Shown here: one piece after another, positions 8,908 to 18,479 of the stretch
Layout of the letters: each line of letters begins with the position of its first letter
Position numbering within the stretch: the first letter of the stretch is position 1
From: a bacterium
GTDB lineage: Bacteria; Patescibacteriota; Microgenomatia; JAMCZE01
DNA: 64,000 nt
Assembly: GCA_021836035.1 (NCBI GenBank)
Contig: JAKBJL010000001.1
Coordinates: 223,765-287,764 of the forward strand
Reading direction: 5' to 3'
Notes under the pieces: model-generated
Database searches by the model: none
What the model was told of the DNA's origin: nothing
What the model saw: only the letters and a program-made list of their open reading frames with translations
Made by a program: the position numbers and the translations under genes

Positions 8908-9120
8908 CTTCCACTCTTTTCATTTTACTCCCCGCCCGGGGAATGGTAAAATTACAACCGCAACTTGGAAATATAATAAAAGTTAATATTCCCCTGCCTG
9001 CCCGCCCTGGTCCCAAGCTTGTCGAGGGACGAAGGAGGGTAGCTAGAGGGATACTCAAAGAAAAAGAACATTTAAATTTTAATATTCCCCTGTAGCTCAG
9101 TTGGTAGAGCGCCTCGCTGT

Positions 9121-9619
9121 GGGGGTTCCCTGTCTGGTATACTCATATGTGTATGCCGGAGAAAAGAACATACGCTGATCGAGCAGAATACCTTAAGAAA
9201 GCAGCCACTGCCAGAAGGCGAAAGCTGAAACAGATGGTTGCAGAATATAAGGGCGGTAAATGTGGGCTCTGTGGTTATCGTCGATGTATTTGGGCATTAG
9301 ATTTGCACCACATCGACGAAAGTATGAAGGAATTCAGTATGTCTGTCAGAGGCCTAACAAGATCTTGGGAAAAGATTAAAGCCGAAGCAGATAAATGCAT
9401 TCTTATTTGTGCAAATTGCCACAGAGAAATTCACGCCGGCGTAACGCAGCTTCCCGTTGAAAAGCGGGAATGAAAATCAGGCTAATTCGGGGAAGACCCG
9501 GCTTTGCGGGTTAATCCCGAGCTAAATAAAATGTGTAGAGACTATATACCTGAGACCTAAACCTTAAAATGGCATGGTCAAGAGATAGTCCAAGCCTTTA
9601 AGTAATTAAAGGGCACTTG
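9121..9619 (+). mobile_element. group I self-splicing intron with embedded HNH homing-endonuclease ORF
   Basis: The 5' exon ends in U and the intron ends in G (cacttG|TAA). Core elements in canonical order: P-like AATTCGGGGAAG (9485-9496), Q-like AATCCCGAGC (9513-9522), R-like GTGTAGAGACTATA (9532-9546), S-like AAGAGATAGTCC (9580-9591). P4 and P7 pairing is possible. Confidence 0.7.
9147..9473 (+). CDS. HNH (His-Me finger) homing endonuclease, intron-encoded
   Basis: CGLCGYRRCIWALDLHHIDES...CANCHREIH carries the HH...N...H motif with flanking Cys pairs. It lies entirely inside the intron. Confidence 0.7.
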   Translation: MCMPEKRTYADRAEYLKKAATARRRKLKQMVAEYKGGKCGLCGYRRCIWALDLHHIDESMKEFSMSVRGLTRSWEKIKAEADKCILICANCHREIHAGVTQLPVEKRE

Positions 9620-9645
9620 TAACGAGGATGTCGTAGGTTCGAGTC

Positions 9646-11337
9646 CTACCGGGGGAGCACTAGTGGATTTGACGCCCATTCGTCCTCTAATTGGGCAGTC
9701 AATAAGCCCTGATTATCGGTTCCGAACATTGCCGAAGTTGATGGCACCTCTTCAACGACAGGTTTTAGAAAGCAATAGGGTTTTTGCAGATTGAGACGCA
9801 ACGTTTTGTCAGTAATAGTAAAGTCCGAACCTAAAATAATTAACATCTCCCGTTTCTGCATAAGGGTAGCGTTTGCGAACTTATAACGGCAGTGGACGGC
9901 AAAATCAAAAGCCTTTTCTGCATCATTCATCCATTCATCAACTTTTTTGCCTGCGTTTCCCATCCTTTGCTCAAGAGAAATTTTTTCGGCCATAAGCGTG
10001 TCTTTTTGTGATTTAAAATCAGTGTCCGAAAGTAACGAGCCGTCCGAATTTGCCGGGGAGATTTTTAGCTGAAGCAAGTTATCCAACTTTTTAAGACAAC
10101 CATTGTAAGCCTCTTGGATTGCCCCTATGGAAGCGTTGCGAACTTCAACCTCTTGATCGTTAAGTTTGTTTAAGTGCTTTATAGCCCAATCTTTGAAACG
10201 CTCGCTTATGCCCACCTGCGACATTAAAGCGTCGATCTGTTTTTCCAGATTTCCTACTTCTACTGACCCCTGAGTGCAATTGGGGTTTTTCCGTTTCGTG
10301 CAGTGGTAGTGCACATAATGCCGGATAAGAGGGTTATCCATTTCGCTTATTTTGGTATGGCATTGCTGACAGGTGTTATTATTGGTGCAGGTGAATTTAT
10401 AATTGCATTTAGAGCAAACGCATTGCCATCGTTCTTCCGCCGTCACCATCGCTCCACATTCGCCGCATTTCATTAATCCCGTAAAGGCAAACTCTCTGAA
10501 ATGAGGACTTGGCGATCCTTTTCTTCCCAAAATAATTTGTACCTTGTTAAATTGTTCTTTTGTAACCATAGGTTCATGCTGCCCCTGAAACCACTTGCCA
10601 CTACCGACCGGAAACTCGAATAAGCCGTAGTAAAACGGGTCTCGTAACATCCGGTAAATTTGGCTTCGTGCCATTGGTTTCCCACCGATAGATTTTCGTG
10701 TTGGTGAAGTGTAGCCCCATTCATTATTTAACATGTCTAAAATTTTGGGGGGCGTATATGCTCCGGTAAGCATTAATTCCCAGCATTGTTTTATAAGAGG
10801 GAATCTTACCGGATCGTTCATGATTTTCTTGCTGCCCTTTTCGGCGTACTTGTCGTTCATATATCCCGGCTTTGCTCCGGAGGGGAGATATCCTTTCTCG
10901 GCTTTCGTTTTAAGGCCCTCTTTGACGTTTTCTCCTTTGTGGTCGTTTTCAAATTTGGCTTGCATCATAAAGAAGCCAAGCATAAATTTATCCATTGGGT
11001 TATTTCTGAATGTTTGAGACGGGGTACAAACTTCAACCAGGTCGCCGCTATCCATCAAAGAAATAATTGTGGCCGCATCTTGGGGATTCCTTGAAAGACG
11101 GTCGGGGTGCCAAACCAAAATCCTGTCGATTTTGCCCTCTTTAATCATTGATACCAGTCTTCCAAATTCGGGCCTTCCCAAGTCTTTGGCTGATTTTGCT
11201 TCACTAAAGATATTGGTGATCTTGAAGCCTAGCTTCAGGGCAACAGCTTCCAGTTCCCTAGTTTGGGATTCTATAGAAAGCATCTGCCGATCTTCTGATT
11301 CGGAAGACTTTCTGCAATATGTTGCGTAGTTACTCAT
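9646..11337 (-). CDS. large serine recombinase (integrase)
   Basis: N-terminal resolvase catalytic domain (YCRKSSESEDRQ...SIESQ, ILVWHPDRLSRN), recombinase domain and Cys-rich zinc-ribbon region. The 3' end overlaps the tRNA 3' end by 12 nt. Confidence 0.85.
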   Translation of the reverse strand: MSNYATYCRKSSESEDRQMLSIESQTRELEAVALKLGFKITNIFSEAKSAKDLGRPEFGRLVSMIKEGKIDRILVWHPDRLSRNPQDAATIISLMDSGDLVEVCTPSQTFRNNPMDKFMLGFFMMQAKFENDHKGENVKEGLKTKAEKGYLPSGAKPGYMNDKYAEKGSKKIMNDPVRFPLIKQCWELMLTGAYTPPKILDMLNNEWGYTSPTRKSIGGKPMARSQIYRMLRDPFYYGLFEFPVGSGKWFQGQHEPMVTKEQFNKVQIILGRKGSPSPHFREFAFTGLMKCGECGAMVTAEERWQCVCSKCNYKFTCTNNNTCQQCHTKISEMDNPLIRHYVHYHCTKRKNPNCTQGSVEVGNLEKQIDALMSQVGISERFKDWAIKHLNKLNDQEVEVRNASIGAIQEAYNGCLKKLDNLLQLKISPANSDGSLLSDTDFKSQKDTLMAEKISLEQRMGNAGKKVDEWMNDAEKAFDFAVHCRYKFANATLMQKREMLIILGSDFTITDKTLRLNLQKPYCFLKPVVEEVPSTSAMFGTDNQGLLTAQLEDEWASNPLVLPR

Positions 11338-16198: not shown

Positions 16199-17308
16199 AT
16201 GGCAAATAGTAATCTTGCCAACGCAAAAAGGACAAAAAACGACGAGTTTTATACCCAGTACAGTGATATTCAAAAAGAGATTGAAGCGTATCTGGACCGA
16301 AACCCTGATGTGTTCCGAAGTAAGGTGGTATATTGCAACTGCGACGACCCGTTTGAAAGTAACTTCTTTCGTTACTTCGTGCTTAATTTCAAAAAACTTG
16401 GGCTGAAACAACTAATCACTACTAGCTATAAACCTTCACCTATAGCTAATACACAGCTGCAGTTATTTGGTGACGATAAAACACTCACTAAATCAAAAGG
16501 TCGTCCCAAAATAAACGCCAATAAATTCATTATTAACGAAGTGCATGATATTGACGGTAACGGCGAATTTAATTTGAAGGATATTGCCAAACAGTTAAGG
16601 GCAAACAAACACAATGAATGGACTCCACTAGAAGGTGATGGCGATTTTCGTAGCGATGAGTCTATAAATCTGCTGAAACAATCTGACATCGTGGTAACTA
16701 ATCCGCCGTTCAGTCTGTTTCGTGAGTATATAAAACAACTTGTTGATTTTAATAAAAAGTTTTTGATCATAGGCAACATGAACGCGATTACCTATATAGA
16801 GGTATTTCCATTACTTAAAGAGAATATGGTTTGGTTAGGTAATAATTACAAGGTCAATGCTGGGGCAATGTTTTTTGAGATACCAGAAAAGATTGCTAAT
16901 TTAGAGCAAGTTCGTGAAATTAAGACAAGCGAAAGTGGTAAGAAAGTTTATATTACACGCGTGCAAGGCATTCGTTGGTTCACTAATCTTGACCATGGCC
17001 GTCGTCACCAGCCACTACAACTAATGACGGAGGCAGAAATAATAAAGTTTTCAACGAAAAAACCGTTTGAGAAATATGATAACTATGATGCGATTGAGAT
17101 CTCGTTAGTTAAAAACATTCCAAGCGACTATAAAGGGGTAATGGGCGTACCGGTTAGTTTTTTAGACAGTTATAATCCTGATCAATTTGAAATTTTAGGG
17201 TCGAATCGTGGTGTTGATCAAGATCCAAATAAAATTTACGGCAGAGGGTCATACCTGAATGGAAAAGAAATTTATAAGAGATTATTTATAAGACATAGGA
17301 AAAAATAA
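16199..17308 (+). CDS. DNA amino-methyltransferase (N6-adenine/N4-cytosine class, NPPF motif IV)
   Basis: [11 protein letters not shown] catalytic motif IV. Possible AdoMet motif NCDDPFES upstream. Confidence 0.55.
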
Positions 17309-17309
17309 T

Positions 17310-18479
17310 ATGGAAACAACATTTAAAACCGACATTACTGTCAAAGACATTTGCGAGGGTTTTGTCTATAACGAGTTAGAAGGTAAAGGATTGTTTGGTC
17401 TGGCTGGCAAACTTACTATTCAGCCGGAATATCAGCGCAACTATATCTATGCTTCTGACGGAGGCAAAAAAGAAATGGCCGTAATCGAATCGGTTCTTAA
17501 GAGATACCCAATAGGATTGATCTATTTCAATAAAGTAAGCGACAATAATTTAGAAGTTTTGGACGGACAACAACGCATCACAAGCCTCGGACGGTTCTTG
17601 ACTGACAAATTTGCCATTAAAGATGAAAACGGCATGGAGCAATATTTTAGTGGTATGGCAAAAGATAAACAGGATAAAATTTTAAAAACTCCTTTGCTTA
17701 TTTACGAATGCGAAGGAAAAGAAAGCGAGATAAAAGAATGGTTTAAAACAATAAATATTGCCGGTGTCCCACTTAGTGATCAAGAGTTGCTTAATGCAGT
17801 ATATTCAGGACCGTTCGTAACGCTTTGTAAGGAGGAATTTAGTAATAGTCAAAACGCTAACATCCAAAAATGGGGTGCTTACGTATCTGGTAGCGTAAAC
17901 CGGCAGGAGTTTTTGGAACGCGCTTTGGATTGGGTAAGCAAAGGCAACATTGGCGATTATATGAGCCGTCACCGCTACGACAAAAGTATCACCGAGCTAA
18001 AAACATATTTTAATAGTGTGATCGATTGGATTTCCAGCGTGTTTACCGATGTGGAGAGCGAAATGCGAGGACTGGAATGGGGGCGACTATATGAACAGTA
18101 CCATTCTAAAACTTATGATCCTGCCAAAGTGTCGGCAGAAGTGCAAAAGCTCTATGGCGATCCGTATATCAAAAGTCGTAAGGGTGTTTTTGAGTTTGTC
18201 TTAGGCGGTTCAGTCGACACGAAACTATTAGAAGTCCGAGTTTTTGATGAAGCAACAAAAAAAGCTGTTTACACAACACAGACTGCTGATGCTAAAACCA
18301 AAGGGAAGTCAAACTGTCCGCTTTGTGCTATTGGACATGACGCCAATAAGAGTAAGATTTGGAATTTTGACGAGATGGACGCAGATCACGTAGCAGCATG
18401 GAGTAAAGGTGGTGCAACTTCAGCTAAGAATTGTCAGATGCTTTGCAGGACACATAATCGAGCAAAAGGAAATCGATAA
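17310..18479 (+). CDS. DUF262 (ParB-like NTPase, DGQQR motif) + C-terminal HNH/DUF1524 nuclease, GmrSD-like
   Basis: [13 protein letters not shown] in the N-domain. [12 protein letters not shown]...[15 protein letters not shown] is an HNH motif in the C-domain. The start lies 2 nt after the methyltransferase stop. Confidence 0.7.

Follow-up and report, generated by a model that had tools for sequence, protein, structure and literature searches.

When two halves of a tRNA gene lie 499 nt apart, what separates them, and do they still make up one gene? We addressed this question for a locus at 9086-9657 of the window, by which we mean the whole 64-kb stretch of DNA analysed here; all features described below are on its + strand. 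Exon 1 (9086-9120, TCCCCTGTAGCTCAGTTGGTAGAGCGCCTCGCTGT) provides the 5' strand of the acceptor stem, the D arm and the 5' strand of the anticodon stem, and its last loop nucleotides are C32 U33 G34 U35 (CUGU). Exon 2 (9620-9657, TAACGAGG...CGGGGGAG) resumes with U36 A37 A38 and the 3' strand of the anticodon stem, and continues through the variable loop, the T arm and the 3' strand of the acceptor stem to a discriminator G; read directly from the sequence, its 3' end does not encode CCA. The first-pass annotation had proposed that the halves reconstitute a canonical tRNA-Asn(GUU) with the anticodon loop CUGU|UAA. When introns were allowed, ARAGORN indeed reported this gene (i(36,499), 9086-9658), and from the sequence spliced in silico it called a 74-nt tRNA-Asn(gtt). 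The spliced tRNA has 56-62 identical positions with the intron-less tRNA-Asn of related genomes (72-73 nt).

Under default settings ARAGORN, the sole tRNA scanner applied to the window, called no tRNA in the 64 kb, as expected from the earlier prediction that standard scanners would miss this gene. Failure of tRNAscan-SE, ARAGORN and tFind alike on such intron-split tRNA-Asn genes has been documented (PMC13011429). The same default run gave no second tRNA gene in the 64-kb window, of which tRNA-Asn(GUU) is the only tRNA gene; it may also be the sole tRNA-Asn gene of the genome.

The intervening sequence (9121-9619, 499 nt) is located between tRNA positions 35 and 36, and both its first and its last nucleotide are G. 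It begins after an exon U (U9120) and finishes in a G (G9619), just as had been proposed. It contains the only Rfam match of the window, to the group I intron family RF00028 (9433-9612, full-length model, 59.0 bits, E 2e-12), which is above the gathering threshold of 50 bits. The observation that a tRNA-Asn(GUU) gene is interrupted by a group I intron with a small HNH nuclease gene is confirmed.

At the 5' splice site, the exon sequence CUGU (9117-9120), which ends exon 1 in 76 of 80 related loci, forms the 5' strand of P1. It is complementary to GCAG 9446-9449, with U9120 in a U.G wobble. The internal guide sequence GCAGC (9446-9450), the 3' strand of P1, is invariant in all 72 aligned loci, comprising the window intron and 71 further tRNA-Asn introns. 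P1 has 4 bp, to which a fifth pair may be added, and it is unable to covary because both of its strands are fixed. We looked for covariation of exon position 31 with the base that follows GCAG and rejected it, as the guide stays GCAGC with G, C or A in the exon. At the 3' end, the terminal guanosine (omega G, 9619) occupies the invariant column G174 of alignment A2. A convincing P10 was not found in the window, where CGUAAC 5' of the guide can pair with no more than two of the three leading exon 2 bases; many relatives carry CAUUAC 5' of the guide, which could form 3 bp of P10.

For roughly half of the related loci the ARAGORN call is 'Thr (tgt) i(33/34)', as if the gene were a tRNA-Thr(UGU) whose intron lay two nucleotides further 5', between positions 33 and 34. 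We give this reading virtually no credence. The 33/34 boundary was rejected for the window, whose intron would then end in U instead of G, and the splice site would fall on a U-A pair of P1 rather than on the U.G wobble. A consistent reading of the relatives yields exon 1 ...CUGU and the 3' junction ...G|UAA in all of them, and the spliced body is similar to tRNA-Asn genes without an intron. The Thr mis-call is itself documented, and the 35/36 junction has been confirmed by sequencing of a spliced product (PMC13011429).

With the gene read as tRNA-Asn(GUU), the group I core falls where the first-pass annotation had placed it (9485-9591), with P-, Q-, R- and S-like elements. Both pairings named there, CGGG/CCCG for P4 (within 9487-9491/9516-9520) and GACUAU 9540-9545/AUAGUC 9585-9590 for P7, are correct, and P3 to P9 fold consistently, with covariation over 72 related loci. 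The P2 hairpin (9451-9458/9463-9470) is capped by a GAAA tetraloop (9459-9462) and shows compensatory changes in all 8 pairs. P3 (9477-9481/9549-9553) encloses P4, P5 and P6, and is paired in 90% of the alignment cells. Pairing reaches 98-100% of cells in P4 (9487-9491/9516-9520), 71% in P5 (9496-9500/9507-9511) and 100% in the 2-bp P6 (9521-9522/9533-9534), with compensatory changes in each of these helices and in P3. P7 (9540-9545/9585-9590) forms a pseudoknot with P3; five of its six pairs are invariant in the 72 loci, and G9540-C9590 corresponds in position to the guanosine-binding pair. P8 (9554-9557/9576-9579) is 91% paired and all four of its pairs covary, and the P9 hairpin (9595-9601/9606-9612), with a GUAA tetraloop, has six covarying pairs. 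Taking all 42 pairs over the 72 loci together, pairing is seen in 85% of cells, against at most 44% when the partners are slid by 1-3 columns, and 32 of the 42 pairs show compensatory changes. The fold of the intron far exceeds chance expectation.

The core from P2 to P9 is confined to the last 174 nt of the intron and loop L1 takes up 325 nt; the non-coding part amounts to only ~178 nt. At 499 nt, the window intron is the shortest of 62 measured ORF-containing introns (61 loci and the window). It has no P7.1/P7.2 and no P6a, elements that most relatives possess. The spacer from P7 to P3' consists just of AUA (9546-9548), and the mark of subgroup IA, namely P7.1 plus P7.2 between P7 and P3', is not found in the window intron; these two helices are present and covarying in 46-54 of 72 relatives. 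Because P7.1/P7.2 and P6a are missing, activity cannot simply be carried over from the tested intron of this family described below.

The absence of helices so common among the relatives would suit a decaying relic, in which the loss of P7.1/P7.2 and P6a inactivated the ribozyme and turned the tRNA into a pseudogene while a second tRNA-Asn elsewhere does the work. So would the Rfam score of 59 bits, which is below that of most relatives (77-102 bits). We consider such decay very improbable. None of the core helices is broken, and the window keeps both GNRA loops, the terminal G, P7 and the guide sequence. The nuclease ORF is open throughout and has 81% identity to its best homologue, and no other tRNA was called in the 64 kb. 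Moreover, the reduced form without P7.1/P7.2 recurs in five other loci (L001, L003, L005, L010 and L035), which speaks for a lineage and not for one-off decay.

The HNH endonuclease gene of this intron (9153-9473, 106 aa) lies within L1, and it overlaps the guide sequence and P2 with its last ~9 codons. An ORF at 9147-9473 in the 5' peripheral part does exist as first annotated, but its 108 aa count from an upstream in-frame ATG at 9147; based on homologues, we chose the conserved second ATG at 9153 as the start. The public gene call is truncated to 79 aa. The core is shared by ORF-less relatives of 192-257 nt, in which only 5-10 nt separate the splice site from the guide sequence; the nuclease ORF is therefore an insertion in L1.

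PHROG HNH families match the protein with E values from 3e-31 to 1e-5, and its profile matches include the HNH domains of group II maturase and McrA. The gathering score of the Pfam HNH family PF01844 was not reached (12.8 bits vs 21.4, E 0.13), and default thresholds give no Pfam match. Invariant in 24 homologues are C39, C42, H54, H55, C88, N90, C91, H92 and H96 (C-x2-C...HH...C-x-N-C-H...H), which supply the catalytic His-His, Asn and His as well as the two zinc Cys pairs of an HNH nuclease. In a structure model (pLDDT 88.5), a strand-strand-helix arrangement is predicted around the motif. The top 30 Foldseek matches of this model in the PDB, all of them weak (E 0.09 or worse, TM <=0.41), are HNH or related beta-beta-alpha-metal nucleases, including Cap5, T4 endonuclease VII, Cas9 HNH and Gme HNH.

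The start codon of the nuclease, AUG 9153-9155, lies inside a conserved stem-loop of L1 (9136-9157) in which GGUAUA 9136-9141 pairs with UAUGCC 9152-9157. This hairpin is kept in most of 59 loci. Its partners pair in 97% of cells, a share that drops to 58% or less once they are slid; the changes between loci are G-C to A-U, A-U to G-C and U.G to C-G. The window sequence of this hairpin gives a 10-bp stem of -18.8 kcal/mol (z -3.15). The 5' arm reads TGGTATACT, an extended -10-like box. A two-hexamer promoter scan does not report this box because a -35 match is absent, so the idea of a promoter draws on the extended -10 consensus alone. In the main text of PMC13011429, the word 'promoter' occurs just for T7. 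With the start codon buried in the hairpin, ribosomes would be kept off the precursor tRNA and the ribozyme would be free to fold, and TGGTATACT, acting as an extended -10 box, could yield a short transcript in which the start codon is free. A similar arrangement is that of the T4 td intron, where the start of I-TevI is said, after work by Gott et al. in 1988, to be sequestered in a hairpin of the precursor, possibly together with an internal promoter. In both cases an intron-borne nuclease would have its start in a hairpin, an arrangement to which comparative evidence alone points in the window. The two differ in the host gene, which is a tRNA here and an mRNA in T4.

The tRNA-Asn(GUU) and its intron would be transcribed as a 572-nt precursor, in which exon CUGU (C32-U35) pairs with the guide GCAG 9446-9449 to form P1, the U.G wobble marking the 5' splice site. 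We infer the steps of splicing from what is established for group I introns and from a homologous intron that splices in vitro (PMC13011429). A free guanosine bound in P7 would attack after U9120. The terminal G9619 would then take the place of the guanosine and the 5' exon would attack after G9619, whereby ...CUGU would be joined to UAA... and the anticodon loop CUGUUAA restored.

How novel is such a gene? The first-pass annotation deemed a tRNA-Asn intron with a homing endonuclease unusual, a view that is outdated, since Williams (2020) had mapped the class and its characterisation by Nakagawa et al. (2026) followed. The finding in the window is correct but ordinary: the intron family and its HNH genes were described in that 2020 preprint and 2026 paper, and a related intron has been spliced in vitro. 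The preprint extends the four classical bacterial tRNA intron types to 21 (bioRxiv 10.1101/2020.01.27.920355), and Nakagawa et al. credit Williams for the class 'Asn.4Ug' (PMC13011429). Of the 95 complete Patescibacteria genomes that they surveyed, 15 have tRNA-Asn(GUU) 35/36 introns, four of them with HNH genes, and precise in vitro self-splicing has been demonstrated for the homologous intron of GCA_016700035.1 (Nakagawa et al., mSystems 2026, PMC13011429).

The window copy, which comes from a draft assembly, does not appear in those portions of the text and tables of PMC13011429 that were available. It shares with the Patescibacteria 35/36 family the host gene, the insertion point, the -1 U, the terminal G and the guide GCAGC, as well as the mis-annotation by tRNA finders, but it differs in having neither P7.1/P7.2 nor P6a. 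Between the validated intron of GCA_016700035.1 and the ORF-deleted window precursor there is 61% identity over 253 aligned columns, with all core blocks in common. In GCA_016699425.1 the HNH gene starts after a GGTATAC box, as it does in the window. We are thus highly confident that the window intron is a member of the described Patescibacteria tRNA-Asn(GUU) 35/36 family, in a copy that carries an HNH homing-endonuclease gene.

Small IC3 tRNA introns, such as those of Azoarcus tRNA-Ile and Anabaena tRNA-Leu, are compact, have no large peripheral domains and bear GNRA loops on P2 and P9. The window intron resembles them in its compact ribozyme and in the GNRA loops on both hairpins, whereas its relatives carry P7.1/P7.2 and are classed as IA (PMC13011429). 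The cyanobacterial tRNA-fMet and tRNA-Arg(CCU) introns are likewise group I introns in a bacterial tRNA anticodon loop that have a homing endonuclease gene (PMC13011429). They differ from the window intron in the tRNA, the insertion position and the nuclease family, the former being at 33/34 with a PD-(D/E)XK nuclease and the latter at 36/37 with a LAGLIDADG nuclease, and they belong to subgroup IC in contrast to IA for the Patescibacteria tRNA-Asn introns (PMC13011429).

Loci related to that of the window number at least 564 in species-representative genomes, and the nearest HNH and intron relatives are overwhelmingly from records named as Patescibacteria/CPR lineages. The nuclease gene lies in or beside tRNA-Asn at 76 of 80 genome loci. 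At most Patescibacteria loci it is inserted in L1; some Patescibacteria also have it as a free-standing gene, placed either upstream or downstream of a tRNA-Asn that has a short ORF-less intron or no intron. The closest relatives from viral contigs adjoin intron-less tRNA-Asn in tRNA arrays at 65 of 80 loci. The term 'free-standing' is absent from the main text of PMC13011429, which is also silent on the start-codon hairpin, on the viral relatives beside tRNA-Asn and on the reduced intron of the window. We looked in the window for a copy of the 3' end of the tRNA that might mark a second boundary of the adjacent island; none was found at <=3 mismatches, which is not unexpected given a serine recombinase.

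The F-TflI/II/IV enzymes of phage T5 are members of the HNH family. Together with T4 SegB (GIY-YIG), they are free-standing homing endonucleases of phage tRNA clusters (PMC2330249). Relatives of the window HNH gene similarly stand free in the tRNA arrays of sequenced phages and of viral contigs, although the window gene itself lies in an intron of a bacterial chromosome.

The HNH protein would cut or nick an intron-less tRNA-Asn gene, and repair would copy the nuclease gene in, with or without the intron. Alternatively, the protein might no longer serve mobility, having been kept as a maturase-like folding aid or for other DNA while the intron is inherited vertically. With 106 aa it is very small, a separate DNA-binding domain cannot be recognised in it, and some genomes carry the gene beside an uncut intron-less tRNA-Asn. 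Four related genomes have such an intact tRNA-Asn adjoining the nuclease gene, which is awkward for an enzyme that simply destroys that site. Limited horizontal transfer of tRNA-Asn introns, as argued in PMC13011429, would also agree with a role outside mobility. We nevertheless find this alternative unlikely, as the catalytic and zinc-binding residues are invariant, and the gene occurs inside the intron, upstream or downstream of the tRNA and in viral tRNA arrays, always tied to tRNA-Asn, a distribution typical of a site-specific nuclease gene that moves independently. In addition, free-standing copies are without the C-terminal tail that overlaps the ribozyme, indicating that the protein is independent of the intron.

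With the protein taken as a mobility nuclease, we tentatively suggest a broader reading, possible though somewhat short of probable. The HNH gene would be more than a passenger confined to this intron; its nuclease clade would be specific for tRNA-Asn genes and self-mobile, caught at stages of invading a protective intron, and TGGTATACT would be both a promoter and the arm that hides the start codon. Free-standing and L1-inserted copies would then represent successive stages of a nuclease gene invading the intron that shields its target site, as in the 'collaborative homing' that has been proposed for phage introns. The TGGTATACT promoter would give a near-leaderless nuclease mRNA, and the same sequence would hide the start codon in the precursor tRNA.

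In conclusion, the main importance of the skipped tRNA-Asn(GUU) for the window lies in annotation, since a scanner that passes over a split tRNA-Asn makes a genome appear less complete and the tRNA can be misread as absent. The window adds one member, of a reduced form without P7.1/P7.2, to an experimentally characterised family. Beyond the finding originally submitted, it is the pattern among the related loci, a natural series of nuclease genes entering introns, that could repay work.

The tRNA-Asn(GUU) gene consists of a 5' exon at 9086-9120, ending in CGCUGU, and a 3' exon at 9620-9657, starting with UAACGAGG, which are separated by a 499-nt intron (9121-9619) whose first and last bases are both G. 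As the first-pass annotation had proposed, the two halves rebuild a canonical tRNA-Asn(GUU), both on direct reading and with ARAGORN, which recognized the in-silico spliced exons as a canonical 74-nt tRNA-Asn(gtt) and reported tRNA-Asn(gtt) i(36,499) from the unspliced gene once introns were allowed. A normal ARAGORN run found no tRNA in the 64-kb window, bearing out the expectation that a standard scanner would miss this gene. The full-length Rfam group I intron model matched positions 9433-9612 with 59 bits (E 2e-12) against a gathering score of 50 bits, which upholds the proposed assignment to group I; this was the sole Rfam match within the window.

The ribozyme was mapped by comparing the window intron with 71 related tRNA-Asn introns and with ORF-less relatives. 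P1 joins the exon sequence CUGU (9117-9120) to GCAG (9446-9449), with a U9120.G9446 wobble at the splice site. The remaining helices are P2 (9451-9458/9463-9470, GAAA loop), P3 (9477-9481/9549-9553), P4 (9487-9491/9516-9520), P5 (9496-9500/9507-9511), P6 (9521-9522/9533-9534, just 2 bp), P7 (9540-9545/9585-9590; GACUAU/AUAGUC, placed as originally read), P8 (9554-9557/9576-9579), and P9 (9595-9601/9606-9612, GUAA loop), and the terminal G is at 9619. In the resulting 72-sequence alignment, 85% of cells in the intron helices held standard pairs, compared with 33-44% when the 3' partners were slid by 1-3 columns, and 32 of the 42 intron helix pairs had changed on both sides. Covariation was seen in P2, P3, P4, P5, P6, P8, and P9; five of the six P7 pairs were invariant, as were the guide sequence GCAGC and the terminal G. 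No convincing P10 was found for the window intron. Because GCAGC lies just 5-10 nt past the splice site in the ORF-less relatives, whose introns measure 192-257 nt, the ORF of the window intron represents an insertion in loop L1.

In most relatives, two additional hairpins (P7.1 and P7.2) separate P7 from the 3' strand of P3, and a P6a extension is present; both hairpins covary among them. The window intron has none of these elements (9540-9553 and 9521-9534): AUA alone occupies the place of P7.1/P7.2, and P6 is held to 2 bp, a reduced form common to the window and loci L001, L003, L005, L010, and L035 from related genomes. Its non-coding part comes to about 178 nt, and its total of 499 nt makes it the shortest among the 62 ORF-containing introns measured (61 loci and the window). 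Subgroup IA is the class given to these tRNA-Asn introns (PMC13011429); with P7.1/P7.2 missing, a structural hallmark of that subgroup is absent from the window intron.

The preprint of Williams (bioRxiv 2020, 10.1101/2020.01.27.920355) raised the number of intron-interrupted bacterial tRNA types from four to 21. In 15 of 95 complete Patescibacteria genomes, Nakagawa et al. (mSystems 2026, PMC13011429), who credit Williams with class Asn.4Ug, found tRNA-Asn(GUU) to be interrupted by an intron at 35/36; HNH endonucleases are encoded by four tRNA-Asn introns that exceed 500 bp. One of the HNH-bearing introns in that study starts with the same GGTATAC...ATGCCAGA sequence as ours. They also demonstrated precise in vitro self-splicing of the GCA_016700035.1 intron, which a terminal G-to-C change abolished; the ORF-deleted window precursor is 61% identical to this validated intron and has all core blocks in common with it. 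The element is therefore of an already known kind, experimentally validated in a homologue, and as a finding it is in itself of low interest, the side observations being of moderate interest. The first-pass annotation is confirmed in its observation and, since Nakagawa et al. already describe such introns, homologous to that of the window, supported in its structural interpretation, but its claim that an intron with an endonuclease would be unusual in tRNA-Asn has been superseded by these two studies. By analogy with the tested homologue and the established group I pathway, the precursor of the window copy would fold, exogenous guanosine would attack after U9120, G9619 would take the place of guanosine in the P7 site, and exon ligation would restore the anticodon loop CUGUUAA.

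The 108-aa HNH ORF that had been noted is present at 9147-9473, and alignment of homologues identifies the second ATG (9153) as the conserved start codon (MPEKRTY..., 106 aa). The Pfam HNH model gave 12.8 bits, under its 21.4 threshold, and PHROG HNH families matched with E 3e-31. Two Cys pairs, His-His, Asn, and His are invariant in the homologues, and a family profile gave hits to HNH domains in a group II intron maturase and in McrA. The 30 best PDB matches of an AlphaFold model (pLDDT 88.5) were HNH or related beta-beta-alpha-metal nucleases, all of them weak (E at least 0.09). The protein presumably acts on intron-less tRNA-Asn genes. Its final codons (..GVTQLPVEKRE*) share nucleotides with the guide sequence and P2. 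Only intron-borne copies retain the 'TQLP' tail, which diverges in free-standing ones and thus reflects the RNA rather than the protein. In the public record to which the window was assigned (GCA_027371575.1, contig DAHXMT010000002.1), the gene list shows no tRNA at this locus, and the nuclease call (P0054, 9234-9473) is a truncated 79-aa protein from an internal Met, so both the tRNA and the full nuclease ORF seem to have been missed.

The nuclease start codon lies inside the stem of a conserved stem-loop (9136-9157) in which GGUAUA pairs with UAUGCC; in the window the stem reaches 10 bp (-18.8 kcal/mol, z -3.15). In most of 59 loci, among them free-standing copies, ATGCC is preceded at a distance of 9-10 nt by the box TGGTATACT, and 97% of cells were paired compared with at most 58% when slid. 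Compensatory changes are few, one of them turning codon 2 from Pro to Ser. By consensus match, the same 5' arm also fits an extended -10 promoter element.

Upstream of the tRNA-Asn gene lie dnaG and rpoD, and its 3' end is overlapped by a large serine recombinase reading frame on the minus strand (9646-11337). The recombinase gene marks the beginning of about 20 kb (to about 30000) of lower G+C, 0.35-0.42 from about 10 to 30 kb versus 0.45-0.51 elsewhere in the window, containing a primase-like protein, an HTH regulator, an FtsK-gamma protein, an EcoRI-like methylase (16199-17308), and a GmrSD/HNH protein (17310-18479). One independent assembly ends at the tRNA/recombinase junction. The stretch is probably an island that integrated beside the tRNA gene; when the window was searched for a second copy of the tRNA 3' end as a candidate far boundary, none was found.

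More than 950 related proteins share 70-81% identity with the nuclease, those that are named belonging to Patescibacteria (candidate phyla radiation) lineages, and at least 564 related loci emerged when a single genome was scanned for each species. Among the best 80, tRNA-Asn(GUU) was in or adjoining the match at 76, and all intron-containing copies were split identically, after CUGU and, past a final intron G, before UAA. ARAGORN labelled about half of these 'Thr(tgt) intron at 33/34', which we rejected as a two-base misplacement; the Thr(UGU) mis-call is likewise documented in PMC13011429. The nuclease gene sits inside the intron at about 60 of the 80 loci. At about 10 it lies just upstream of a tRNA-Asn with a short ORF-less intron (upstream genes at L003, L005, L009, L027, L042, L043, L057, L066, and L073), at two just downstream of such a gene (L022, L026), and at four beside a tRNA-Asn that Rfam confirmed as intron-less (L007, L067, L033, L071). 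Locus L069 (1233-2285, labelled Andersenbacteria) apparently has two HNH gene copies, one upstream of the tRNA-Asn (ending at 1604) and the other inside a 575-nt intron (1691-2071). At L009, in a related genome, the intron-containing tRNA-Asn is followed after about 240 nt by a LOOT RNA (2336-2459; Rfam RF03000, 71.9 bits).

At least 569 relatives of the nuclease were detected in viral contigs. At 65 of the best 80 viral loci the nuclease gene directly adjoins an intron-less tRNA-Asn(GUU) that belongs to a tRNA array, even though tRNA-Asn accounts for only 72 of the 488 tRNAs at those loci, and in phage Bastille the gene stands between two tRNA-Asn genes. Other tRNAs adjoin more distant relatives. 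In phages T5 and T4, tRNA clusters are known to harbour free-standing nuclease genes (PMC2330249); the main text of PMC13011429 makes no mention of free-standing copies upstream or downstream of tRNA-Asn. Taken with the genome arrangements and the start-codon hairpin in free-standing copies, the viral loci suggest a nuclease gene that is mobile in its own right, is linked to tRNA-Asn genes, and came to reside in the intron.
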